Shown here piece after piece: positions 1,277-48,261 of a DNA stretch of 64,000 nucleotides. Under the pieces are notes generated by a model, which was not told where the DNA came from, did not search any database, and saw only the letters and a list, made by a program, of their open reading frames with translations. Each line of letters opens with the position of its first letter. Position 1 is the stretch's first letter. The stretch is from the NCBI GenBank assembly GCA_018819225.1, contig JAHJQN010000004.1:287302-351301 (forward strand). Direction: 5' to 3'. This DNA is from Candidatus Micrarchaeota archaeon (GTDB taxonomy: Archaea > Micrarchaeota > Micrarchaeia > Norongarragalinales > SBBD01). The translations under genes and the position numbers were made by a program.

Positions 1277-3088
1277 TTATTTCTTCTTGCCGCTCTGCTG
1301 ACTGTAATAGTAGTATCCCACTATGGCCACGAGAATCACAACGACAATGATCCAAATCGCGTAGTCAGGTCCAGCAGCTGCTGCCGGAGCAGCCGCCACC
1401 CCACCCGTTGAAGCGGGGCGTTGCGTCGGAATGGCCGTCGGCTTTACCCCATCATCTGCAGGAGTGGTTGCCGCTTTCGTCGAAGGCGCTTGGAACTCCT
1501 CCAATACGCTTTCATCAACGCCCTTGCGGACCGTTACATCCGCTTTGAATTCCTGGTTCGCAGCCAAATTGACATCCCACACGGCGATCAGACTACCTTC
1601 TTCCACATGCGAAGGAGCCGGACTCAATGAAATGACTCCGCTCACGTAGTCCGCGTAATCGAAAGGCAATCGGAACGAAACCGTTCCACGGAAAGCGCTC
1701 GTGGGCTTGTACGACAAGGTGAACGTGGCACGCGAGGCGCCAAACGATCCCTTAACGGATGCACCAGAGCCAATGGTCTTTGTCGACGAACTCAATTCAG
1801 GTTCTTCCTCGTCTTCAGGTTGAACCGAAGGAGCCGATGTCGGAACAGGCGTGGACGTCGAAGTCGAGCAGTCCGGATCCGTTCTTCGGGCGCGTACACA
1901 TAACTCGTTGCAACTTCCGTCGTCAGCACAAGAGGTGGAAAGACCCAAGCAATAGCCTGACGGACAATATGATCCAACCGGACATTGGGTATCCAACGTG
2001 CAAGTAACTCCGGAAGATCCTCCGGTAGGCGTCGGGGTTCCAGAAGACGTGCAGTTGCCAACCGTCATGATGGTTGCGTTGATCGCAAGAATGTGTTCAG
2101 AGTACACGGAGATGTTGGCTTGACCCGTAGAAATACCGGTACCGTTAATGATCACGGCCGTCGTACCATTTCCAGAATAAACGGTAGCCACGTTCGTGTC
2201 ATTGGAAGCCCAGTAAAACTCACCCGTCGTATTCGTATTACCTTGCGCGTCCAATCCATACGCCCCAATCGGCGTCGGAATCGAACAGCCCCCGATATTG
2301 AAATACGCTTGCGTGTTGTTAACGTATACCAAGGTAATATTGCCTGCAGTAACCGTTACAACCGTCGAGTTGGTCGCAGACGCGTTATCCGCATGGAACA
2401 CCGTAATCAATGCCTGCCCCACCAACGTCCCGTTGACGGTCACCTCCAGCGAATTGTTACCAGCAGTCACTTCAGAAACCGTGGATGCGTTCGAAGACCA
2501 GTCCAAATTAGTCGTGCTGTTGACGTTACCATACTGGTCCAAAACAGATGCTAAAATGCGGCTGGAATTCCCTGCGGTAACATTTAACGCGGTAACGTTA
2601 ACGTTTATGGAGTACGCGTTGCCTGCCGTGGCCGTATACGTACCGGTACCACTATCCACGAGATCCGTACTCGGGGTGTCCGTCATGTTATAGGTATAAG
2701 CGGCAAGCGTGTGCAAACCGGTGGTCGTGTTAATAGTAATACCAGCAATCTCCAGCGACACATTCGTGTCTGCTGCAAAACTGGTGTTGGCGAAGTTGTA
2801 GGTCACGTTTTGGCCGCTTACGGCTACCGTACCCGAGCTGGGGATGGTAATTGTTGAAATTACGCTGGCACCGGAGACGGTATAACCAGTCGGGAATTCG
2901 ACGGTAATGTTAGACATATTCAAATGCGCGGTAGGTACGTCAAGCGTAATGTTGAACGCGACATCGCTCGTTCCAACAACCGTGGAGTTGGGGGTCACGT
3001 TCACGGCAGTCAAGGCTGCAGCCGAAGAAAATGAGGCGAGGGTGACTAGCATTAACGAAAACAAAAACACTTTGAACAATGGATTCAT
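1277..3088 (-). CDS. Secreted, C-terminally anchored surface glycoprotein (Ig-like repeats, Cys-rich segment)
   Basis: Signal peptide, many N-x-S/T sequons, WSSN..V Ig-like repeats, Cys cluster, P/T linker, C-terminal TM followed by KKK. Confidence 0.7.
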   Translation of the reverse strand: MNPLFKVFLFSLMLVTLASFSSAAALTAVNVTPNSTVVGTSDVAFNITLDVPTAHLNMSNITVEFPTGYTVSGASVISTITIPSSGTVAVSGQNVTYNFANTSFAADTNVSLEIAGITINTTTGLHTLAAYTYNMTDTPSTDLVDSGTGTYTATAGNAYSINVNVTALNVTAGNSSRILASVLDQYGNVNSTTNLDWSSNASTVSEVTAGNNSLEVTVNGTLVGQALITVFHADNASATNSTVVTVTAGNITLVYVNNTQAYFNIGGCSIPTPIGAYGLDAQGNTNTTGEFYWASNDTNVATVYSGNGTTAVIINGTGISTGQANISVYSEHILAINATIMTVGNCTSSGTPTPTGGSSGVTCTLDTQCPVGSYCPSGYCLGLSTSCADDGSCNELCVRARRTDPDCSTSTSTPVPTSAPSVQPEDEEEPELSSSTKTIGSGASVKGSFGASRATFTLSYKPTSAFRGTVSFRLPFDYADYVSGVISLSPAPSHVEEGSLIAVWDVNLAANQEFKADVTVRKGVDESVLEEFQAPSTKAATTPADDGVKPTAIPTQRPASTGGVAAAPAAAAGPDYAIWIIVVVILVAIVGYYYYSQQSGKKK

Positions 3089-3263
3089 AGTATAACATCA
3101 CCTACGGATTGTTAGAGTGAGAAAGTGTCAAGGCCTATAAAAGCATTTGCATTGCAAATAGCAGGACGTGTAGCCTCCAACATCCCCGTCGAATAACCCA
3201 TTCCATTAAACGCAATAGATTAAAATAGAGGTTAAATAGAAGAAGTTAAGAAGGTGATTACGA

Positions 3264-3494
3264 ATGGCGCGAATGATTATTCACGAGGCAAAAGGTCCCG
3301 TGGAACTCAGAGTAGGGAATGAAAGCAAGTGGATTTGTAAATGCGGTTTGTCCAAAAACACGCCGTACTGTGACGGATCGCATAAAAAGACGGCCGATGA
3401 ACCCGAAGGAAAAGTATTCAAATACGCTGAGGATGGGACGAGGAAAGAAGTCTGGCAGGAAGGGAGTAACCGAAAAGCTATTGCAAGTGCTTGA
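3264..3494 (+). CDS. CDGSH iron-sulfur domain protein
   Basis: [17 protein letters not shown] motif; GGTGA SD upstream. Confidence 0.9.
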
Positions 3495-4209
3495 CCTTCG
3501 GGAATTCTTTCACGCCCACTTCTCGGTCAATAACGAAAGGAACCATGTCGCCCACTTGGCATTGCTCCATGATCGGGGAAACGAATTCCTTCTCCTTTTC
3601 GCTTCGCGTGACGTCGAATCCGGAAGCCAACGGTGAAAGCGAAGGCAGTACGATCAGCGTTTGATCGCGGTACTTCCCGCGCAGCAAGCACTTGAACTTG
3701 TGCGCCACGCCTATTTCATCGCGTATGCTGACCGCGGGATGCACGTGACCGATGACCAGCGTGTGAAACGGTTTCCAGCGCCTGAAGCCCGGGTAATCGC
3801 TCAAAAGCCGGTGCCCGTGAACGAACAAATATCCGGATTCTTGATACGCGTCCACAAGCCTCATTTCCTGATCGCGAAGAATCTTTCCAAGAAACGCATC
3901 GTGATTTCCGCGGACGAAAATCGTTTGAACGCGCTTGGACTTCAGAAACCGGAGCAACGACAACACTTCTTCCCACTCCTGTTGATGCGGACGCGAAAAA
4001 TGGTGTTTCACGTCCCCATTGATCAGAACGCGCTTCGCATGCGTCGCGCGAAGCATATCGCGCAAAGCAACTTCCACTTCAGCATATTGAGAAACCGGGA
4101 CGTGGATGCCTTGCGCTTGCAGTACCGCCTCGTATCCAAACTGCAGATCCGAAATCGCGAGCAGATCCATCTCCTCAAAAAAGACGCCCGCCTGTTGGAG
4201 AACCCGCAT
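3478..4209 (-). CDS. Calcineurin-like metallophosphoesterase (Lhr-associated type)
   Basis: DLQFG, NGDVKH, RGNHD, HGH and GHVHP motifs; same strand as lhr. Confidence 0.85.
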
Positions 4210-39905: not shown

Positions 39906-40310
39906 TCACACTAATACGGGCGATCGCGCACCACACGCCTCGCAAATCAATATTTTCGCGCTTCGCCCATGCGACTCGATCGACGTATCCGGCTTATGGC
40001 ATTCATGACAGATCACGTGCGTCTGGGCGTACAAACCGATTTTTTCATTAATCAAGCGGTCACTGACCTTGGTTTGCAACAGCAAACGCCCGCCTTCCAT
40101 GACCCCCGGAACGGCCAGTTCCCGAAACAAGAACTTCGCCAGGTCTGCGGGCTTGCGACGAAGCGTTTGGCAAATCGCGTCAAAATTACGGATTAACGTC
40201 TTATTGCCTTCAATGAATGCGTCCGCGATAGGCACTTCAAAACGTTCGCCGGAAGACTTCTTCTCGGGAAGGGACGCGTAAACCTCTGTCAACATGTTTT
40301 CGTAGTTCAT
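39906..40310 (-). CDS. eif2b: Translation initiation factor aIF-2 beta
   Basis: ERFEVP, GNKTLIRNF, ICHECHKPDT, CEACGA; start trimmed to ATG 40310. Confidence 0.93.
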   Translation of the reverse strand: MNYENMLTEVYASLPEKKSSGERFEVPIADAFIEGNKTLIRNFDAICQTLRRKPADLAKFLFRELAVPGVMEGGRLLLQTKVSDRLINEKIGLYAQTHVICHECHKPDTSIESHGRSAKILICEACGARSPVLV

Positions 40311-40375
40311 GAAATGGAAACCACTCGCTCTCCAGAAACGGAGAAGTAGGAAGTATACTACCGTTTCCCTCATTT

Positions 40376-40645
40376 TTAAGGCTTTCTTCCCGGCGCACGA
40401 CTCACCAATCGCTTGGAAGTTAGACGCTTGATGGGGGAAGGCGCGTACGCTTTTTCGGGCTTTCGCAGCAACTGCATGAGCACGTAAGCGAACTGCAGCG
40501 ATATTCCTGCAGCAACAAGTAATTTCGCCCAAAAGAATACCGTGCTTTCATCCGGATATTTCTGCAGGACGCCCGCAAGAAATAATAGAACGCCGCCCAC
40601 GATCGCTGCGGCGCCCGTTCGACCCAACAGAAATTTGGTGACCAT
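40376..40645 (-). CDS. Small two-TM membrane protein
   Basis: Two hydrophobic segments, basic tail. Confidence 0.5.
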   Translation of the reverse strand: MVTKFLLGRTGAAAIVGGVLLFLAGVLQKYPDESTVFFWAKLLVAAGISLQFAYVLMQLLRKPEKAYAPSPIKRLTSKRLVSRAPGRKP

Positions 40646-40711
40646 AACCGAATATTCAAATACCGGTGCCTAATAATGCTTGGGGGAACGCATGAAAAGA
40701 GGTGCATGGGA

Positions 40712-41080
40712 ATGAAGAAGAAAACGCTTTCACCCGAACAACATCGCATCCTAATGGAAAAAGGCACCGAGCCCCCTTTTTCCGGTAGGCTGCTGAACCA
40801 CAAGGAAAAAGGGGTTTACGAGTGCGCGAACTGCGGTAGTTCGTTGTTCTCCTCCGAAACCAAGTTCGATTCGGGGAGTGGATGGCCGAGTTTTCATGAT
40901 GTCATCAATAATAAAAAAGTAGTACTAAAAACGGATGCGAGTCTTGGAATGAAGAGAGTGGAAGTATCGTGCAAGCAATGCGGAGGTCATTTGGGGCACG
41001 TGTTTGATGACGGCCCGCAACCCACGGGAAAACGCTATTGCATTAATTCGCTGGCGCTCGAGTTCAAGAAAAACCGTTGA
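40712..41080 (+). CDS. msrB: Peptide methionine-(R)-sulfoxide reductase
   Basis: GTEPPF, KFDSGSGWPSF, HLGHVFDDGP, RYCINS. Confidence 0.95.
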   Translation: MKKKTLSPEQHRILMEKGTEPPFSGRLLNHKEKGVYECANCGSSLFSSETKFDSGSGWPSFHDVINNKKVVLKTDASLGMKRVEVSCKQCGGHLGHVFDDGPQPTGKRYCINSLALEFKKNR

Positions 41081-41299
41081 CTAGCTTTTTCTTGTTGTCT
41101 TCAAGTATTGCGTCCGAAAAACGAAGGCCACGAGCATGATTCCGGAAGCCAGCCCTAATGGAAACGTCCCAGACGAATTTCCTCGCAAGGAGGAATCAAT
41201 AGCCGAGACCCCGAAAACGACTCCCGCAATCAGATACGGATAAGGGGAATAGAGGAATCGGTTGAAGGCGTCTTTTTTCTGAACTCGTCTCTTTTTCAT
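41081..41299 (-). CDS. Small two-TM membrane protein
   Basis: Basic N-terminus and two hydrophobic helices. Confidence 0.5.
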   Translation of the reverse strand: MKKRRVQKKDAFNRFLYSPYPYLIAGVVFGVSAIDSSLRGNSSGTFPLGLASGIMLVAFVFRTQYLKTTRKS

Positions 41300-41331
41300 A
41301 ATAAAAGTTAGTTGACGGTTTATAAAAAGAT

Positions 41332-41373
41332 AGTGCAGGGGGAGTAAGCGCAGCCGTGGGCTTGAAGCAGACC
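41332..41373 (-). repeat. att-like repeat L1
   Basis: AGTGCAGGGGGAG..AGCC-gtg-GGCT..GCAGACC. Confidence 0.75.
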
Positions 41374-41403
41374 ATCGGAATCCTTGTCCGAAGAAACATT
41401 TAA

Positions 41404-41435
41404 ATATTTATCAGTTGATATATTTATCGGTTGAT
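41404..41435 (+). promoter_or_regulatory. Tandem 16-bp repeat, putative antitoxin operator
   Basis: ATATTTATCAGTTGAT / ATATTTATCGGTTGAT immediately before ATG 41440. Confidence 0.55.
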
Positions 41436-41439
41436 TAAT

Positions 41440-41724
41440 ATGGAAAATATCTTCGTTTCGTTCAAGCCCCGGAATTTGGACCGCTATCCCCGGCTGGATA
41501 CCGTACTCATGGTGGAAAAGGAACTCTTCAAGCACCGTAGCGACAAGACGATTACGGAAATCTGGAGAGGACTTCCAAGGAAAGTCCTGTGGACGACGTA
41601 CACCACCATTCTTGATTACTTGGAATATTCGGGCAAGATCCACATCGAGAAGGACAAAACGATTACGTGGCTCTGGAACCCCCAGCTATTGGAGCGAATA
41701 AAACGAGAGGGCATCGAAGCATGA
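41440..41724 (+). CDS. Putative wHTH antitoxin
   Basis: PRLDTVLMVE..LPRKV..ILDYLEYSGKI; homologous to 43599..43874; stop overlaps toxin start (ATGA). Confidence 0.65.
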   Translation: MENIFVSFKPRNLDRYPRLDTVLMVEKELFKHRSDKTITEIWRGLPRKVLWTTYTTILDYLEYSGKIHIEKDKTITWLWNPQLLERIKREGIEA

Positions 41725-42071
41725 ACGATTCCCGCACTATCCGCGTGCGCTTTGTAGACAGGAAGCTATACGAGACATACCTCAAGTTGAAGGCGGGAAA
41801 AACGGAAGAAAAGAGACTGGCGGAATACTTGGAACGAGCCATCCAAGACCTCAAGAAGGACCCGTTTTGCGGCATCCAAATCCCCCGTAGACTATGGCCG
41901 AAGGATTACGTGCGAAAATACGGCATCAACAACTTGCGGAAGTACGATTTGCCGAACGGCTGGCGATTAGTTTACACGCTGGTCGGCAACCAAATCGAGA
42001 TTGTTTCCATCCTCTTGGAATGGTTCAAGCATAAAGAGTACGAAAAACGCTTTCATTACAAGGTAAGATAA
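41721..42071 (+). CDS. RelE-like toxin
   Basis: LKKDPFCG, YGINNLRKYDLPNGWRLVYTL, HKEYEKRF. Confidence 0.7.
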   Translation: MNDSRTIRVRFVDRKLYETYLKLKAGKTEEKRLAEYLERAIQDLKKDPFCGIQIPRRLWPKDYVRKYGINNLRKYDLPNGWRLVYTLVGNQIEIVSILLEWFKHKEYEKRFHYKVR

Positions 42072-42083
42072 CCATTTTCACGT

Positions 42084-42128
42084 CTGAGTGCAGGGGGAGG
42101 GCAGCGAGCCTATGGCTCTGTGCAGACC
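42084..42128 (-). repeat. att-like repeat L2
   Basis: CTGAGTGCAGGGGGAG..GAGCC-tat-GGCTC..GCAGACC. Confidence 0.78.
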
Positions 42129-42195
42129 GGCTTGTCGTGTATTCGTAGTCATATTTGTAGAAACCTTTATATATTTGTAGTCACCTAAGGATCGT

Positions 42196-43137
42196 ATGCA
42201 TATCGAGATTCGCACGATCGGCAGGAAAAAGAAATTCTACCTTGCTCATTCGTACCGCCGGCAAGGGAAAGTAGTTAAACTGCGGGTTTATCTGGGGTCT
42301 GGCCTTTCCTCAGACGAATTGGCTGCAAGGAAGGTCCGTGCTGAAGAGCGTCTCAGTTTTCGGATTTCGGCAATAGGCTCAATCCGAGATCCGTTTCAAA
42401 CGGCTCTCTCCGCCAGCGAACTGCGGGAACTTGAAACACTCGAAACCAGGGGGGAAATCGCAGTAAGGTACCTGTCGGAAGAGGACTGGCGCAAATTCAC
42501 CGAAGCGTTCGCATTCGACACCAACGCCATCGAAGGCTCTTCGGTTCTTGCAAACGAAGTCGGCGACATTCTGGAAAGGGACAAGTGGCCGGACAAACCG
42601 AAAGAAGACATTTCCGAGACTTACGGGGTTGCCAAGGCAATCGAATTCATACGAAAGACCAAAGACCCCGTTTCCATTCCCCTCGTACTCGAACTCCACC
42701 GGCTGGTCTTCCGGAATTCGAAACCGTTTGCTGGAAGGCTGCGCGGTCGAGGTGTCGAAGTGGTAATCGGCGACGGGAGAGGCAACGTCATCCACCGCGG
42801 CGCGCCTTCCACGCAGGTGCGTAGCCTACTGGGCAAGCTAGTCAAATGGTACGGTGAGAACAAGAAAAAATATCCTCCACTGGTACTGGCCGCCGTGGTG
42901 CATAACCAGTTCGAGAACATCCACCCGTTCCAGGACGGCAACGGCCGAGTCGGAAGGCTGCTATTGAACAACATCCTCCTCAAGCACGGCCTTCCCCCGC
43001 TAAACATCGAGCTCCGCAACCGGCAGGAATACTACGCCGCCCTGCAGGAATACGAGCGCAGCCAGAACATCCGGCCGACAATCGAGCTGATGCTTAAGGA
43101 ATACCGCGCCCTCAAGCGGCTGCTCAAGAAAAGGTGA
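42196..43137 (+). CDS. Fic-domain protein (class II, N-terminal inhibitory motif)
   Basis: HPFQDGNGRVGR active site; TNAIEG fits (S/T)xxxE(G/N); basic beta-rich N-terminal domain. Confidence 0.92.
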   Translation: MHIEIRTIGRKKKFYLAHSYRRQGKVVKLRVYLGSGLSSDELAARKVRAEERLSFRISAIGSIRDPFQTALSASELRELETLETRGEIAVRYLSEEDWRKFTEAFAFDTNAIEGSSVLANEVGDILERDKWPDKPKEDISETYGVAKAIEFIRKTKDPVSIPLVLELHRLVFRNSKPFAGRLRGRGVEVVIGDGRGNVIHRGAPSTQVRSLLGKLVKWYGENKKKYPPLVLAAVVHNQFENIHPFQDGNGRVGRLLLNNILLKHGLPPLNIELRNRQEYYAALQEYERSQNIRPTIELMLKEYRALKRLLKKR

Positions 43138-43186
43138 CTACAAACCCGCAAGCGTAGTCACCCAATGCGCAAACCCCTGGAACTCA

Positions 43187-43240
43187 CAGCCCAAGGCTGA
43201 GTGCAGGGGAAGTAGCTCAAGCCAACGTCTTGCTGCAGTC
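43187..43240 (-). repeat. att-like repeat L3
   Basis: CAGCCCAAGGCTGAGTGCAGGG matches 44020-44041 at 21/22; followed by CAAG..CTTG hairpin and GCAG. Confidence 0.8.
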
Positions 43241-43245
43241 TCTGA

Positions 43246-43602
43246 TCACTTGCGTTTGTAACCGAACCGCTTATCGTATGTCCCGTGAGGACTGATTTCA
43301 AGGACGAAGGCAACAATTTCAACTTCTGTTCCCCCTTCGGTCAGCGAATACAGCATTCTCCAGAATTGAGGGAGTTCTACGCGGAACAGGTTCTTGATCC
43401 CGTACTTCCGCTTGTACTCGTCAGGAATCTTATCTTTAGAGATGGGCTCTCCATAATGAATGTTGGCCTTGATCAGCTCGACTTTTTTATTGATTGCGTT
43501 CAGGATGCTCCTGTCGCGTTTTGACTTGGGTGCTCGCTCATTCAAATACCGGTACACTTTCTCAGCTTCCGGCGAGAGAACGACTCGGACGGTCTTGTTC
43601 AT
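43246..43602 (-). CDS. RelE-like toxin
   Basis: YGIKNLFRVELPQFWRMLYSL, HGTYDKRFGY; homologous to 41721..42071. Confidence 0.7.
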   Translation of the reverse strand: MNKTVRVVLSPEAEKVYRYLNERAPKSKRDRSILNAINKKVELIKANIHYGEPISKDKIPDEYKRKYGIKNLFRVELPQFWRMLYSLTEGGTEVEIVAFVLEISPHGTYDKRFGYKRK

Positions 43603-43874
43603 AGCTCAAGGCCTCTGGCAATGGCTTTCCTGAGAGCAGGATTGTCATTGGCGATCCATGAAATACCTTTCAGGGAAACAGCGATCTTGTTGCTGGCCTC
43701 CAAATATTCTAAAATAACCATCAAGGTATAGTGGTTGACCTGCTTCGGAAGCATTCTTTTCAGTTCGGCAATTGTAATGACGCTCTTCTTCATGTTTGCC
43801 AAAACCTCTTCCACCATGATGACGGTTTTCAAGTTCGGCGCATGCGCAAATTCCACGTTATACATAGTCATCAC
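43599..43874 (-). CDS. Putative wHTH antitoxin
   Basis: PNLKTVIMVE..LPKQV..ILEYLEASNKI. Confidence 0.65.
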   Translation of the reverse strand: MMTMYNVEFAHAPNLKTVIMVEEVLANMKKSVITIAELKRMLPKQVNHYTLMVILEYLEASNKIAVSLKGISWIANDNPALRKAIARGLEL

Positions 43875-43971
43875 TTTATTTTACAAATTCATAACCTATT
43901 TGTATTTATTAGTATATTTAAGCCTTTCGGTACCTCGTTTTAACTAATCAAAGGAAATAGGTAGAAGCGTA

Positions 43972-44009
43972 CAGCCTATAGGGGAAGTCACCGTAGACGA
44001 TTCTACAGC
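43972..44009 (-). repeat. Degenerate att-like repeat L4
   Basis: CAGCC..AGGGGAAGT as in L3, plus hairpin ACCGTAGA-cgat-TCTACAGC. Confidence 0.45.
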
Positions 44010-44034
44010 TGGGCACTTCCAGCCCAGGGCTGAG

Positions 44035-44179
44035 TGCAGGGAGAGGGATTTGAACCCTCGAAGCTTCTACAGCACAGGATTTCCTAAAACCCTTTCTTTT
44101 CTCGTCGAGGTCTTTTCTTTACAAAAAGAAAAGAGGTCGCTTAAGTCCCGCCCCTTTGACCGAACTTGGGTACCCCTGC
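44035..44179 (-). tRNA. tRNA-Leu(UAA) with 59-nt canonical intron (44081..44139)
   Basis: gcagggg/tccctgc, A73; cggga-CT-TAA-G|..|A-tcctg; long variable arm; gaggg-TTCAAAT-ccctc. Confidence 0.92.
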
Positions 44180-44261
44180 GTAAACCTTTTTTTAATGAAA
44201 GCTTAAAAGCGTCATGGATACGCCTAGATGAATGAACTCATAGGCGTTAATGCGCCGCGGA

Positions 44262-44426
44262 TTACTTGCCTCCGCCCTTGGCTTCCTTTCGGCGCGCGCG
44301 CTTGGGTCGCAAATGAGGATAATTGCACTTGCGGCACTTCACCGTCCCTTTCGGATTGCGCGTCTTGCATTTCAAGCAAACGACGACCGATAGAAACGCT
44401 TTGTCAGCTAAAGGAAACTTGCCCAT
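44262..44426 (-). CDS. rpl40e: 50S ribosomal protein eL40 (absent from ORF track)
   Basis: Hand translation: MGKFPLADKAFLSVVVCLKCKTRNPKGTVKCRKCNYPHLRPKRARRKEAKGGGK*. Confidence 0.9.
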   Translation of the reverse strand: MGKFPLADKAFLSVVVCLKCKTRNPKGTVKCRKCNYPHLRPKRARRKEAKGGGK

Positions 44427-44547
44427 ACTGGTTCACGAAAACTTCTGTAAAAGAAGAGAATACTGGTATGGCTACCAACGTTTTTAAAGGCTATTTTGTC
44501 CTAAGAAAGAGGTAGCTGCTTCTTTACCCCGATGGTTGATTTGACAT

Positions 44548-44708
44548 GCCTCCGTAGCTCAGTAGTAGAGACGGAACCTTTTCTTTTTTAATAGAAAAGC
44601 TTCACCAAAAGAAGAAGCGAATAAAAGCGCCTCCGTAGCTCAGTAGTAGAGCGCGAACCTTTTCTTTAATAAAGAAAAGCTTCACCAAAAGAAAGCGCGT
44701 ATTCCCAT
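44548..44708 (+). repeat. Two ~80-bp units, each a tRNA-Thr 5' fragment plus a U/A-rich hairpin element
   Basis: GCCTCCGTAGCTCAGTAGTAGAG at 44548, 44629 and 44709. Confidence 0.9.
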
Positions 44709-44780
44709 GCCTCCGTAGCTCAGTAGTAGAGCGCTTCCTTGGTAAGGAAGAGGTCGCGGGTGCGATTCCCGCCGGAGGCT
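44709..44780 (+). tRNA. tRNA-Thr(GGU), intronless
   Basis: gcctccg/cggaggc; cttcc-TT-GGT-AA-ggaag; T loop TGCGATT. Confidence 0.88.
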
Positions 44781-44793
44781 TGAATTCTTTTTT

Positions 44794-46881
44794 TTAATTT
44801 CGTATCTTCTTGTGAATGACGCGTTTACGTTTGTCGTGGAAGAACCAAGCACTCGCTACAGCCACTGAAAAGAGTAGAATAAGCCAGACGCTGTTAGAGA
44901 AAAGACCTCGTTCCTCTTGACGACGTCGATATTCTTGTTCAGCCGCAAGATACCCTGACTCTCCCCGCAAAACGGTTTGTTTCGGAATCCCCACCATCAA
45001 TGGACTGCCACCAGGAGGCCAGCGAGTCGGAACCGGTGAAGGAGTGACCGTGGATTCGGGCTCGCCCATTCCAGAAGGAACGTACTCCAGATCATTCGTT
45101 ATCAACAGCTTGTCTAATTGCATTCCATCCTCACGGTTGCGAACCGTCAACGTATGGAAACCAGCGGAAAGATCAAACGCAAGAGGATCCAAAGGAGGAG
45201 AACGGCTGTTCGCGACATCCCACCGCCACACGTTGCCGCCCGCCGTATCCCAAATATATTCTGCACCGCCATCCATGCGAATGAACACGCTGTCTGCTGC
45301 CGTGTGAGGAGACAATTCACGACCCCAAACGCGATATTCTCCTGAAACGGGAACCTCGAAAGAATAGGTCAAGAGGTCGGCGTCGCCGCCTGCATTGAAC
45401 GGAACGAGCACGAATTCGCCATTGGAAGCGTCTTCATCCACATCAATGACCCACGCTCCGAGCAAGGACGAAAAGTGTTCGGCCTCCACCCAATAATAGG
45501 AGTATCCCGGAACAGCCGTAGGAGAACATGAACCCAAACAACATACGCCGGACCCGCAATACCCTTCATCCTCCAAGAAACAATCATCGTAGAAACCGCA
45601 GTTGGCGCGACACGACCCACCCAATGCTTCGCAAGGAACGGGTGTCGGCGTGCTCGTGCACGATCCGATACAGCAGATTCCAGTCGAACAATAACCCTCG
45701 GCATCCCAAACGCATTCATTGAATTGACTACAATCCTCTAAACATTGTCCGCCCAAATCCTCCTCGCAATAAATATCCGAGCCGCCGCCTTCAAAAGTCA
45801 GCGTGGCCTGGATGAGATTGAAGGAATCGAACGATCCTTGTCCGGAAAACACGAGCCAAACCGTTTCTCCATTCGCGCTGATCCACTTGCTCGGAAAATT
45901 GTAAAAGAATGAAGGCTCGTAATCCCAAGAATCAAAAATGGCTACGGTATACCAGGGCCCCCAAGGATTCGGTGCCTCAAAAATAGACATGCCGCTACCT
46001 GAAACCCCGCCGTTGTCTCCCACGTGGTGATCGCCGACCAATAAGTACCTCCCCGAAGGAGAATGATACGTGACAACCGGAGGTGCCCAACCCACATTCT
46101 CTTTAATGAAAACGGGTTGTCGGAGAGTCAAGTCATTCGTCCATTGGTTTAAACCAGTCGAGAATTCATACTGATCCCGATCCCAAATGAAATCTTTAGG
46201 AACGCGCATTAAATCCACTTCCCCGGGAACCTGAACCTTGAGACCGGTAGCATCCTTCAACCGCGTCGCGTACATATACACGAATCCATCCGGCGACGCC
46301 GCATCCTCCCCGTACTGCGAGATGCTGGGTAAAATCAATTCGTTTTCTTCAGTGAACATCCAATTGTTTTGAAGTTCCCAAGTTGCCCCATGATCGTACG
46401 AACGCGCCAGCCTCGCATTATCGTAATTCATATTATTGGAACCCGGACTGACCCACATGTATAATACGCCATCAATGGAAACGATCCCGTAAGACTTGCC
46501 GGTAAACGTAGCGGGATTTTCTGCAGCACACGAAGCAGGAGGCGCATGTTCTGGATTTTCGCAACTGCCGTCCCCCAACGCATGGCACCCCCATAAATTG
46601 ACGGGCACGAAATCGACGGCATCCCCTTCAATGCGAGTTAAACCCAAACTAGCGCGACAAAGGGTATTGGATCCTTCAAAACCGCCTCCGTCACCCCAAC
46701 TCGTGTATTGATGACCGTCATCCGCCCAAGTCATCGGAAAATTATCGCTTCCTGAAGCGGCATTGAAATAGGTCGCAGGATTAAACGAGATGTCGGTAAT
46801 GACGGTGCTTGACGGATACGCCACGTTCAGCGAAAGAAAACATATGAAAAAAACAAGAAAGGTACGGAATGCCCCTCGCAT
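44794..46881 (-). CDS. Secreted membrane-anchored protein: DUF4185-like beta-propeller/glycosidase-like domain, Cys repeats, CBM-like domain
   Basis: Signal peptide; SDNFPMTWADDG, Asp-box SYDHGATW, EAPNPWGPW; two C..LGG.C repeats; EAE...REDG...D jelly-roll motif; C-terminal TM. Confidence 0.65.
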   Translation of the reverse strand: MRGAFRTFLVFFICFLSLNVAYPSSTVITDISFNPATYFNAASGSDNFPMTWADDGHQYTSWGDGGGFEGSNTLCRASLGLTRIEGDAVDFVPVNLWGCHALGDGSCENPEHAPPASCAAENPATFTGKSYGIVSIDGVLYMWVSPGSNNMNYDNARLARSYDHGATWELQNNWMFTEENELILPSISQYGEDAASPDGFVYMYATRLKDATGLKVQVPGEVDLMRVPKDFIWDRDQYEFSTGLNQWTNDLTLRQPVFIKENVGWAPPVVTYHSPSGRYLLVGDHHVGDNGGVSGSGMSIFEAPNPWGPWYTVAIFDSWDYEPSFFYNFPSKWISANGETVWLVFSGQGSFDSFNLIQATLTFEGGGSDIYCEEDLGGQCLEDCSQFNECVWDAEGYCSTGICCIGSCTSTPTPVPCEALGGSCRANCGFYDDCFLEDEGYCGSGVCCLGSCSPTAVPGYSYYWVEAEHFSSLLGAWVIDVDEDASNGEFVLVPFNAGGDADLLTYSFEVPVSGEYRVWGRELSPHTAADSVFIRMDGGAEYIWDTAGGNVWRWDVANSRSPPLDPLAFDLSAGFHTLTVRNREDGMQLDKLLITNDLEYVPSGMGEPESTVTPSPVPTRWPPGGSPLMVGIPKQTVLRGESGYLAAEQEYRRRQEERGLFSNSVWLILLFSVAVASAWFFHDKRKRVIHKKIRN

Positions 46882-46925
46882 GGAACCACCTATTTCTTAC
46901 TAGTCTTCCTCGGTTTTAATAAGTG

Positions 46926-46969
46926 CGGGCTTTGCACCTTTTGGGCGAGCCACGCCGGAGGCTTACGGA
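46926..46969 (+). repeat. att-like repeat T1
   Basis: 39/44 identical to 47517-47560; contains tRNA-Thr 3' end CGCCGGAGGCT. Confidence 0.85.
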
Positions 46970-46993
46970 AAAGCATGACAAAAAGGCGATCGA

Positions 46994-47236
46994 TTAGGAA
47001 TAAATATTCTGACGGTGCCCCGCGTCATGCAAGCGAACGGCGTTCTTGCTTAAAGAGTAAATGATCCGGTAGTCGCCGACCCGCAAGCTAAAGAAATTCG
47101 ACAGGCGCCCGTGAAGCCGTTTGCCCGCGCGAGGAAATTGGCCAAGAAGCGTAACTTCACGGAGCAGCCGCACCCGAATATTGCGAGGCAACTTGCGGAA
47201 AGACTTTTGGAAGTGATTGGAATAAAGCACTTCCAT
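46994..47236 (-). CDS. RelE/ParE-family toxin
   Basis: FQKSFRKL, GKRLHG, SLRVGDYRIIY, GHRQNIY. Confidence 0.88.
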   Translation of the reverse strand: MEVLYSNHFQKSFRKLPRNIRVRLLREVTLLGQFPRAGKRLHGRLSNFFSLRVGDYRIIYSLSKNAVRLHDAGHRQNIYS

Positions 47237-47241
47237 GCGAA

Positions 47242-47436
47242 TTACACCTTCAGATTAACAATGGAATGAAATCGGCCATCCGAAAAATCCTTCTCAGATG
47301 AACGAATTCCTTTTAGTAGTTTCTTGTCTGCGAGGACTTCCAGCGTTTCCTGCAAAGATTCGAAAGCATCCCTGGCTTCTTCAAAGCTCTTCTTCGCTGC
47401 GTTCAATTCCTTCCGAATAGATGAACCGACGTACAT
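47242..47436 (-). CDS. Putative antitoxin
   Basis: FESLQETLEVLADKKLLKGIRSSEKD (YefM/RelB-like C-terminus), upstream of toxin. Confidence 0.65.
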   Translation of the reverse strand: MYVGSSIRKELNAAKKSFEEARDAFESLQETLEVLADKKLLKGIRSSEKDFSDGRFHSIVNLKV

Positions 47437-47516
47437 TCTAAGTCCCTTACAACAGCAGTAAAACGAGCTTTATAATACTTGCTAGACACGAGCGCCATTG
47501 GATTTGTCTCGAGGTA

Positions 47517-47560
47517 CGGGCTTTGCACCTTTTGGCCGAGTCCCTCCGGAGGCTTCCGGA
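47517..47560 (+). repeat. att-like repeat T2
   Basis: CGGGCTTTGCACCTTTTGGCCGAGTCCCTCCGGAGGCTTCCGGA. Confidence 0.85.
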
Positions 47561-47636
47561 TTTTTAGATTTCAACGGCAGCATACCCTTCCGAAAGGAAT
47601 ATATATGGACTTAGTTCATATTGATATGGTGATAAC

Positions 47637-47867
47637 ATGGTGCATGCATTAGTCAATATTTCGGAAGAAGCAAACCGCGTGTTGAACGTGATTAAAGCGA
47701 AAAAGAATTTGCGAACCAAATCAGAGGCGATTGAGGAGATGGCGCGAGAGTACGAGCAAGAACTCTTGGAACCCGAACTTCGACCGGAATACGTGGAACG
47801 CATTCGGAAAATCGGCAAGCAAAAAACGATTACAGTGAAGGACTTCGAAAAAGAGTTTCTGAGCTGA
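47637..47867 (+). CDS. DUF2683-like antitoxin
   Basis: NRVLNVIKAK..L..KSEAI, LEPELRPEY. Confidence 0.75.
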   Translation: MVHALVNISEEANRVLNVIKAKKNLRTKSEAIEEMAREYEQELLEPELRPEYVERIRKIGKQKTITVKDFEKEFLS

Positions 47868-47874
47868 TGGCGGC

Positions 47875-48141
47875 ATGTATGGTCTCGAAGTGTCTCCGGA
47901 AGCGTATGCCCGGTTCAAAAAGATGCGAAAAAAGAACCGCTGGCTACTCGAAGTCATTGGCAAGAAGGTCCGGCATATACGCGAGCGCCCCCATCATTTC
48001 AAACCGCTTCATTTCCCCCTTCATAACAAACGACGGGTCCATATTGCGGGATCGTTTGTACTCGTCTATGAAATCAGGGAAAAAGACAAAACCGTTGTCA
48101 TCATAGACTTCGACCACCACGATAACGTTTACATGAAATGA
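47875..48141 (+). CDS. RelE/StbE-family toxin
   Basis: HFKPL, RRVHIAGSFVLVYEI, FDHHDNVY. Confidence 0.85.
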   Translation: MYGLEVSPEAYARFKKMRKKNRWLLEVIGKKVRHIRERPHHFKPLHFPLHNKRRVHIAGSFVLVYEIREKDKTVVIIDFDHHDNVYMK

Positions 48142-48188
48142 CGGAATCGGTTTAAGCGAACGAATGGATGGGGGTATATCGTTTGAAT

Positions 48189-48205
48189 GAGTCCGGCCGG
48201 AGGCT
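48189..48205 (+). repeat. att-like repeat T3 (distal, degenerate)
   Basis: GAGTCC-G-GCCGGAGGCT, followed by a T-tract at ~48219. Confidence 0.6.
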
Positions 48206-48261
48206 CTGAACGTTCCGCATTTTTTTTATTCTTGGTTCAATGGGGATTGCGAAAACCGCGG

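Follow-up and report, generated by a model that had tools for sequence, protein, structure and literature searches.

The 64-kb window examined here (the whole stretch of 64,000 nucleotides that was analysed) comes from the genome of a Candidatus Micrarchaeota archaeon, which is 1.37 Mb in size, assembled in 8 contigs and 90% complete. It contains a tRNA-Leu(UAA) gene followed by an array of small gene cassettes set between short direct repeats of the tRNA 3′ end (the cores), and the origin of this array is the subject of the analysis. In the sense of the tRNA, the arm that precedes a displaced core is called P and the arm that follows a core P′; B′ is the flank beyond the most distal core. Comparisons were made with 68 genomes of the order, from 35 genera, referred to by numbers such as G011, with positions on contigs given in the form C1:249. 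The features of the array are as follows.

41315–41331, minus strand: B′ flank, a T-rich, native-type tRNA trailer (from the sequence)
41332–41340, minus strand: original end of the tRNA, now displaced (core copy 1, L1; 9-mer count)
41341–41378, minus strand: P arm of cassette 1 (11-site alignment; 51.6 bits on a model of P arm plus core)
41431–41724, plus strand: winged-helix partner of cassette 1, 97 amino acids (homology to the cassette 3 partner; family model)
41721–42071, plus strand: RelE/ParE-like predicted toxin of cassette 1, 116 amino acids (ParE_toxin E=1.7e-4, YoeB E=5e-4)
42087–42095, minus strand: core copy 2 (L2; 9-mer count)
42096–42133, minus strand: P arm of cassette 2 (34/39 bases identical to the P arm of a G001 toxin-antitoxin cassette)
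42196–43137, plus strand: Fic-domain protein of cassette 2, 313 amino acids (PF02661, E=4.9e-19)
43138–43199, minus strand: P′ arm of cassette 2 with a terminator-like hairpin (homology to the corresponding end of the Fic cassette in G011)
43200–43208, minus strand: core copy 3 (L3; 9-mer count)
43209–43245, minus strand: P arm of cassette 3 (11-site alignment; 38 bits on the model of P arm plus core)
43246–43602, minus strand: RelE/ParE-fold predicted toxin of cassette 3, 118 amino acids (AlphaFold2 (AF2) model and structure matches)
43599–43874, minus strand: winged-helix partner of cassette 3, a putative antitoxin, 91 amino acids (44% identical to the 41431–41724 product)
43975–44009, minus strand: L4, a decayed copy of the tRNA 3′ part and core (repeat comparison; 32-nt analogue in G011)
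44010–44032, minus strand: P′ arm of cassette 3, CTCAG plus a 13-nt palindrome plus GAAGTGCCC (arm family also at C1:258 and in G001)
44033–44041, minus strand: core copy 4, at the tRNA 3′ end
44035–44179, minus strand: tRNA-Leu(UAA) gene with a 59-nt intron (Rfam RF00005), its 3′ end being the insertion site (attB/attL)

The tRNA gene scores 38 bits on Rfam RF00005 (cut-off 29) and is missed by ARAGORN when the intron option is not used. With introns allowed ARAGORN reports Ser(tga), with an unusual placement of the intron at 34/35; Leu(UAA) is the better call, given A73 and an acceptor stem in common with the other three tRNA-Leu genes of this genome. Canonical placement of the intron at 37/38 gives the anticodon UAA and an intron at 44081–44139, and the sequence then reads as a 3-nt bulge, a 4-bp helix and a 3–4-nt bulge, the expected bulge-helix-bulge shape.

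The core is a 9-mer, AGTGCAGGG on the plus strand and CCCTGCACT in the tRNA sense, made up of the last seven bases of the tRNA and the next two. It occurs exactly four times in the window, at 41332, 42087, 43200 and 44033, always in direct orientation, against a chance expectation of 0.18, and four copies were reached in 0 of 100 shuffles. Genome-wide there are 20 copies versus 21 of the control, and one of these, at C1:2359, was considered as a further site and treated as chance since it lies inside an open reading frame (ORF) without arms. An independent ENA assembly (709-kb contig k141_304414) matches the array and its surroundings with 100% identity over 12.3 kb, so the array is not an assembly artefact.

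The three cassettes are compact, 0.75–1.1 kb in size with almost no spare DNA, and each has a TATA-like box 35–45 nt before its first gene. Cassette 1 (41341–42086) encodes its 97- and 116-residue proteins on the plus strand, and cassette 3 (43209–44032) its 118- and 91-residue proteins on the minus strand, in both cases with a 4-nt overlap of the two genes; cassette 2 (42096–43199) encodes the 313-residue Fic protein. The two gene pairs are homologous and run in opposite orientation, the toxins sharing 37% and the partners 44% identity. The toxin sequence signal is at the Pfam threshold (ParE_toxin, 22.6 bits versus a cut-off of 23), and the AF2 model of the cassette 3 toxin has a predicted local distance difference test score (pLDDT) of 90, with YoeB, ParE and RelE as the best Foldseek matches (probability 1.00, template modelling score by target 0.75–0.77). 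From these models the larger proteins are predicted to have the RelE/ParE/YoeB fold of the RelE/ParE superfamily of type II toxin-antitoxin systems. The family model of the partners is a winged helix (pLDDT 75) whose best structure matches are all winged-helix regulators, and a predicted DNA-binding partner encoded upstream in one operon is likewise as in type II systems. A profile search of solved structures gave nothing significant for either small protein. The partner family has at least 481 homologues, 62–81% identical among the 120 matches listed, and has no Pfam model.

We also note two sets of repeats near the cassette promoters. Between the TATA-like box of cassette 1 (41394–41406) and its winged-helix gene are two tandem 16-nt repeats (41399–41430, TTATC.G.TGAT-like), and a similar pair precedes a 78%-identical winged-helix homologue in an unrelated context; the repeats are likely to be an autoregulatory operator. 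The Fic gene lies between the two arms of a perfect 13-nt inverted repeat, one in the promoter (42174–42186), where it is also tandemly repeated (42151–42186), and the other just past the stop codon (43132–43144). This motif (GTGACTAC / GTAGTCAC) is kept in the Fic cassette of G011 and so is likely to be a cassette operator or terminator element.

The flanks of the cores differ in an ordered way. In the tRNA sense the core is followed by CTCAG and a 13-nt palindrome at the tRNA and at L3, by CTCAGACG at L2 and by CTATCTTTTTATAAA at L1. A P′ arm beginning CTCAG follows every core except the most distal one, L1, which alone continues with CTATC and a T run; this T-rich flank resembles the trailers at the empty site of G007 (below), at the distal Leu(CAG) and Leu(UAG) sites of this genome, and in G008 and G022. 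On the other side the displaced cores are preceded by CTCCCCC or CTTCCCC versus CTCTCCC in the tRNA. The identity common to the four sites is thus nine bases, bounded 5′ by CTCTCCC versus CTCCCCC/CTTCCCC and 3′ by CTCAG versus CTATC, and strand exchange must therefore lie there. The overlap regions of tyrosine recombinases are usually 6–8 bp, and the 9-bp identity falls in that range.

Before each displaced core is a P arm of about 38 nt with the pattern CTGC-N4-AGNC-N3-GNCT-N7, then CT(C/T)CCCCTGCA, common to 11 aligned sites in 6 genomes. The arm has a stem of 4 bp closed by a 3-nt loop, and 79.5% of the cells of the alignment are paired in it, compared to 70% in shuffles and 23–48% when slid, with compensatory changes at two of the pairs; this gives the hairpin support that is real, if modest. 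The stems vary among the cassettes of one genome and yet pair (AGCC/GGCT, AGAC/GTCT, AGAA/TTCT). The P′ arms are 15–60 nt long. A hairpin spanning the whole P/P′ junction was considered as a general feature and rejected, folding being inconsistent between junctions: some form long hairpins (z −3.1, −4.4) and many have z near 0.

Between the winged-helix gene of cassette 3 and the tRNA is the element L4. The region 43990–44020 is 71% like the tRNA variable-arm region 44054–44084, ACTTCCCCT precedes a decayed core at about 43975–43983, and ten bases are common to an arm in G001. It may represent either a cassette that has collapsed or a stretch of a long P′ arm; G011 has, in one of its arrays, a clean empty unit of 32 nt that consists of one palindrome plus core. 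The first-pass annotation of this DNA had described the flank following each core, with a terminator-like T-tract at L1, CTGC and a small hairpin at constant spacing before the displaced cores, and diverged homologous winged-helix and RelE pairs in opposite orientation, and the sequence, the 11-site alignment and the protein comparison bear these observations out; it had described L4 as looking like a collapsed, empty cassette, and the tRNA comparison shows a real, degenerate copy there.

The same locus was compared in related genomes. In the family the gene order aIF1A, aIF2beta, a variable stretch, tRNA-Leu(UAA) and L40e is conserved. The site is empty in G007, with 74 bp between aIF2beta and the end of the tRNA and a join located at the 3′ end of the gene for this tRNA; the variable stretch is 1.1–6 kb in other family members and 23 kb in G001. 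In G008 there is one displaced core, whose P arm is of the window's type, and in G001 there are three, over 15.6 kb of its 23-kb fill. The motif CTYYCCCTGCA occurs 8–23 times per family genome, often in same-strand clusters, versus 0–6 times for the reversed control. Other observations at this locus are that the G001 cassettes (C50:41000–56700) are about 5 kb (a 1152-residue S8 protease and an ATPase), 9.7 kb and 0.8 kb in size, and that G001 has a full-length integrase beyond L40e, probably at tRNA-Thr. In the window msrB and a 72-residue membrane ORF (40676–41080 and 41081–41299) lie between aIF2beta and the array and are absent there in the family relatives; in G024, of another family, msrB is about 2.7 kb from a tRNA-Leu(CAA) gene with an integrase beside it.

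Integrase homologues are present in 29 of the 68 genomes, and full-length tyrosine integrases of about 400 residues are encoded directly 3′ of tRNA-Leu genes in G022 (UAA), G013 (UAG), G014 (CAG, twice) and G024 (CAA). In the first three of these genomes displaced cores bound the integrase-bearing elements, and in G022 and G013 further integrase-free units lie distal to them. In G013 the distal site, which closes a toxin-antitoxin cassette next to the integrase-bearing element, has the same P-arm pattern; the P′ arm beside its tRNA belongs to the family of P′ arms at the Leu(CAA), Leu(UAG) and contig C1 sites of the genome analysed here; and just distal to the integrase-bearing element is a winged-helix plus RelE unit between two P-arm repeats of about 70 nt. 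A covariance model of P arm plus core found sites outside its training set in 19 of the 68 genomes and 14 of the 35 genera, several of them adjoining RelE or Fic homologues or integrases. They include integrase-free arrays of three and six sites in G011, of another family, with cargo that includes two Fic proteins, a large secreted protein and a TauE exporter among others; one cassette of the G011 array that has the 32-nt empty unit (C16:51000–56500, at 1723–3544) encodes a 300-residue nucleotidyltransferase of the PolyA_pol family (CCA-adding type). Exact-pattern scans of public sequences, from which records of this genome may be missing, found no closer strain, empty site or free attP: the P′-arm pattern in public genome contigs and the L1/empty-site junction in metagenome contigs gave one unrelated chance match each, and the P-arm pattern had no match in viral contigs.

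The other tRNA-Leu genes in this genome have insertions at the corresponding point; all four genes found have a common 3′ end, and displaced ends are seen at Leu(UAG) and Leu(CAG). At Leu(UAG) the tRNA is followed by a 95-nt hairpin insert, a displaced end, a 2.1-kb unit (encoding ArsR, a membrane protein, and DsrE-like and OsmC-like proteins), a third core and a T-rich flank, and at Leu(CAG) by the same kind of 95-nt insert, a displaced end and a T run. Leu(CAA) has a P′-family arm directly after the tRNA and then restriction-modification-like genes to the end of the contig. Another contig begins inside an orphan array with the same arms (C1:1–1724). Its cores are at positions 249 and 916 and, with one mismatch, near 1716; a 70-nt P′ arm is repeated twice in it, and its cargo is made up of small gene pairs, of the ParE type and others. 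Our guess is that it belongs to the tRNA-Leu(CAA) array with which C7 ends, as the distal portion of that array; no overlap between the C1:1 end and other contig ends was found. The same insertion architecture is seen at two further tRNA genes: tRNA-Thr(GGU) (plus strand, 44709–48210 region), which is 530 bp from the Leu gene and divergent from it, with displaced ends at 46948, 47539 and 48190, and tRNA-Ser(CGA) (C2:95180–98253), with displaced ends at C2:96101 and C2:95180.

Some details of these sites can be added. The hairpin-rich inserts of about 95 nt (C7:14718–14810 and C1:145500–145600, 3′ of tRNA-Leu(UAG) and tRNA-Leu(CAG)) are protein-free, and the displaced ends after both keep T-loop-like sequence. 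At tRNA-Thr a T run comes after the last displaced end (48190), a 695-residue DUF4185 protein is encoded in the first unit, and the P arms, with a GTGC...GCAC stem, belong to another family. The Ser core has a fourth copy at C2:195265, where the flank is paralogous.

The site order in the window, tRNA-core-P3′...P3-core-P2′...P2-core-P1′...P1-core-B′, is that expected from serial insertion at the tRNA. The first-pass annotation had proposed that successive insertions pushed the original trailer outward, and serial site-specific insertion at the tRNA-Leu 3′ end is supported by the order of the arms, the empty site, the insertions at other tRNA-Leu genes and the integrase-bearing elements of relatives; the empty site of G007 joins at the tRNA 3′ end and not at a position unrelated to the core. 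The newest cassette may then be the one next to the tRNA, a point that calls for caution, since the same toxin-antitoxin cassette is tRNA-proximal here and distal in G001.

A recombinase for these insertions is not apparent in the genome. The PF00589 search found one gene, 230 kb away at tRNA-Ser, whose 306-residue product is encoded on the opposite strand and ends inside the tRNA-Ser(CGA) 3′ end. The protein aligns only from about residue 115 of its full-length relatives and so is without the N-terminal domain; it has a C-terminal zinc-ribbon-like CxxC...CxxC, and it scores 16.6 bits on the integron-integrase model TIGR02249 versus a cut-off of 265. Searches of the 90%-complete genome for serine recombinases, SSV-type integrases (PF16795) and Y1 transposases (PF01797) were negative. 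With five full-length relatives as queries, tblastn detected neither remnants of an integrase within the arrays nor the missing N-terminal domain ahead of the truncated gene.

Whole cassettes recur in other lineages. The distal cassette of G001 has a P′ arm, promoter, winged-helix gene, frameshifted toxin gene, P arm and core in the same order as cassette 3, and its proteins are 81–82% identical to their counterparts in the window; aIF2beta, aIF1A and L40e are 63%, 65% and 75% identical between the two genomes. In the six-site array of G011 there is an orthologue of the Fic protein (73% amino acid identity) in the same orientation relative to the arms, and the nucleotide sequences are 72% identical over 829 nt, from the core through the P′ arm and the terminator-like hairpin into the gene. 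Across families two translation factors are 53–61% identical, G011 not being among the genomes measured. The P arm beside the Fic gene here and that beside the G001 toxin-antitoxin pair share 34 of 39 bases (87%) in two genera and next to unrelated cargo, which speaks for movement, because neutral relics should not stay alike. The compact form of the cassettes and their recurrence as wholes argue for cassette-level transfer, and on these comparisons the cassettes probably move as units.

Taken together, we suggest that the array was built by integration of small cassettes bounded by attachment (att) sites, through a trans-acting tyrosine integrase specific for tRNA-Leu, and we put the probability of this reading at about 0.6. 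What the sequences show are the repeats, the families of arms, the cargo, the empty site, the relatives with integrases and the return of whole cassettes in other lineages; the recombinase, a circular intermediate, mobilization in trans and the order of events are what we infer. The integrase would be specific for the tRNA-Leu acceptor end and encoded in related Micrarchaeota, not in this assembly, and would recombine a circular P-core-P′ unit with the tRNA end inside the 9-bp identity. At each event the tRNA would stay intact, the unit would land directly 3′ of it, and earlier units and the T-rich trailer would be pushed outward. The units would be minimal, integrase-free cassettes of one operon with its own TATA-like promoter between P and P′ arms, and an element of the same att family that encodes an integrase would have to provide this enzyme in trans. 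As minimal, trans-dependent cassettes they would therefore make the array behave like an integron with the tRNA end as attI.

Several observations weigh against this reading. The 90%-complete assembly has no integrase for the tRNA-Leu site. A core within 130 nt was found in 1 of 29 other toxin loci inspected (G012), the further toxin-antitoxin cases with a core being those of G001 and G013:C27, so most toxin-antitoxin homologues are without the tRNA-Leu core and the cargo also lives outside cassettes. The proposition that the toxin-antitoxin pair always travels with the arm is ruled out by the same count; a second pattern match at a toxin locus (G025) is without an arm and looks like chance. 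The higher identity of the cassette proteins could in part reflect constraint rather than transfer. L4, the 95-nt and 32-nt units and the frameshifted G001 toxin are signs of decay rather than of activity, and we saw no direct sign that units are excised, form circles or vary between strains, the sole other assembly being identical.

These observations bear on the main rival, in which larger integrase-bearing elements integrated serially at the same site and then decayed to relics that never moved as cassettes, toxin-antitoxin and Fic genes being those that resist loss. The decay of L4, the G001 frameshift and the truncated integrase count in its favour, as does the lack of a matching integrase in the genome; integrase-bearing elements are tRNA-proximal and integrase-free units distal in both G013 and G022, and integrase loss with tandem integration is described for archaeal elements (PMC8371274), for streptococcal cis-mobilizable elements (CIMEs; PMC5704250) and for tycheposon islands (bioRxiv 10.1101/2020.12.28.424599). 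Against it stand the tight trimming of the units, which hold a promoter, an operon and arms and are free of pseudogene debris, the same cargo and arm end in other families at identities above those of housekeeping genes, P arms 87% identical between genera beside unrelated cargo, and the toxin-antitoxin unit of G013 that has its own pair of P-arm repeats. We regard an origin by decay alone as unlikely, while giving it more weight than any other alternative.

A different enzyme is improbable. It would act on the arm palindromes as folded single-strand hairpins, as at attC sites or IS200/IS605 ends, where a classical integrase would bind duplex att arms, and could account for stems that differ in sequence and keep pairing between the cassettes of one genome, for the junctions that form long P/P′ hairpins, and for units of 32–95 nt, which are too small for duplex circles. 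The stem is only 4 bp, however, with two covarying pairs, many junctions fold with z near 0, neither a Y1 transposase nor attC R-box motifs are found, and classical tyrosine integrases are present at these very sites in relatives. That there was no insertion at all, the array being the product of local duplication, of unequal crossing-over between tRNA-like sequences or of misassembly, is scarcely credible: two cassettes do have homologous gene pairs and a contig break (C1:1) falls inside a similar array, but the pairs are only 37–44% identical and inverted, the Fic cargo is unrelated, the arms differ between junctions, the independent 709-kb contig is identical and a relative (G007) has the empty site.

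Trans-acting integration of cassettes could be part of something wider, and tentatively, at rather less than an even chance, we envisage an order-wide, tRNA-anchored system of one-gene cassettes, each set between short arms with hairpins and the last bases of a tRNA. Tyrosine integrases specific for tRNAs would act on them in trans, to capture and stack cassettes, to excise them and to pass them between lineages. The role of attI would fall to tRNA 3′ ends, and recognition of the stems would depend on their shape and not on their sequence, making the system a functional counterpart of the integron of independent origin. The gene-gain routes of DPANN archaea, which have tiny genomes, are little known; if small integrase-free cassettes do pass through tRNA ends, this exchange would be one of the main ways in which these cells acquire toxin-antitoxin, Fic, surface-protein and transporter genes, and it would explain the clustering of variable genes behind tRNA genes. 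It would be a compact natural case of integron-like behaviour arising from ordinary tRNA-targeting integrases. The 9-bp crossover region, the arm of about 38 nt and the full-length integrases of relatives constitute a directly testable recombination system, and the winged-helix partner family is a candidate for an undescribed antitoxin.

The array shares with integrons (PMC9668308) mostly single-gene or toxin-antitoxin cassettes that end in a recombination site with a small stem, and toxin-antitoxin and Fic or defence-type cargo; in both any two junctions could in principle excise a circle. Unlike integrons, it has no IntI beside it (the single PF00589 gene is 230 kb away), no attC architecture of R″/L″/L′/R′ sites, no common promoter, and an insertion point at a tRNA end. 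The junction sequences contain no R boxes (GTTRRRY), an Rfam search of 40000–46000 (E<=1) returned tRNAs and chance plastid matches only, and the cassettes have TATA-like boxes of their own, with the toxin-antitoxin pairs oppositely oriented. By this comparison the array may function in an integron-like manner and fails to qualify as an integron; the paper on archaeal integrons (PMC9668308) mentions neither Micrarchaeota nor tRNA. Nor is it of the SSV type, PF16795 being absent, no integrase fragments flanking the cassettes and the gene being whole in relatives, or of the IS200/IS605 type, PF01797 having no match in the 90%-complete genome.

Insertion at tRNA ends, displaced tRNA fragments, tandem arrays and integrase loss are well described (PMC4383910; PMC8371274). 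Archaeal tRNA-targeting elements with non-partitioning tyrosine integrases, of the pNOB8 type (PMC8371274; Islander, PMC4383910), have, as in the relatives here, an intact integrase beside the tRNA and a displaced tRNA 3′ fragment at the far end, and they share tandem integration and integrase loss with the array, which differs from them in a crossover within the last 9 acceptor-stem and trailer bases, with 9–13 bp of identity. Islander (PMC4383910) lists 3919 islands, and among them only 4 tandems with at least three members, all of which have an integrase of their own, whereas arrays of three to six integrase-free units are common here. Four features did not turn up in the literature searched: the minimal one-operon form; such arrays in a single small genome at all four of the tRNA-Leu genes found and at a Thr and a Ser gene as well; arms that are conserved on both sides and have a covarying stem; and whole cassettes that recur in different families within an archaeal order.

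The closest known kinds are the tandem accretion of CIMEs at the 3′ ends of tRNA or protein genes and the growth of tycheposon islands. CIMEs of streptococci (ICESt1-type; PMC5704250, citing Pavlovic 2004 and Bellanger 2011) are integrase-free units that keep both att sites and are stacked beside related elements. The array has units bounded by direct repeats containing the 3′ end of the target gene (four cores), no integrase or transfer genes inside the units (from ORFs, Pfam and tblastn), and related integrase-bearing elements at the same att site (G013, G022 and G014, with the same P/P′ arm families). CIMEs, whose mobilisation is expected through the integrase of a neighbour or an incomer, resemble the array in lying in tandem beside integrase-bearing relatives, and are decayed islands of many kilobases, compared to archaeal one-operon cassettes of 0.75–1.1 kb known from sequence. 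The array also differs in that a genome of 1.37 Mb, in which no intact integrase is found, has its like at all four tRNA-Leu genes and at tRNA-Thr and tRNA-Ser, and in that cassettes with their arms recur across families. In the tycheposon islands of Prochlorococcus newcomers push older material outward (bioRxiv 10.1101/2020.12.28.424599), and the likeness extends to tRNA-specific tyrosine recombinases, this outward push, partial tRNA copies and a streamlined host. Tycheposons carry their own integrase and replication genes, with partial tRNAs scattered in large islands, whereas the units here are minimal and integrase-free and have conserved arms on both sides.

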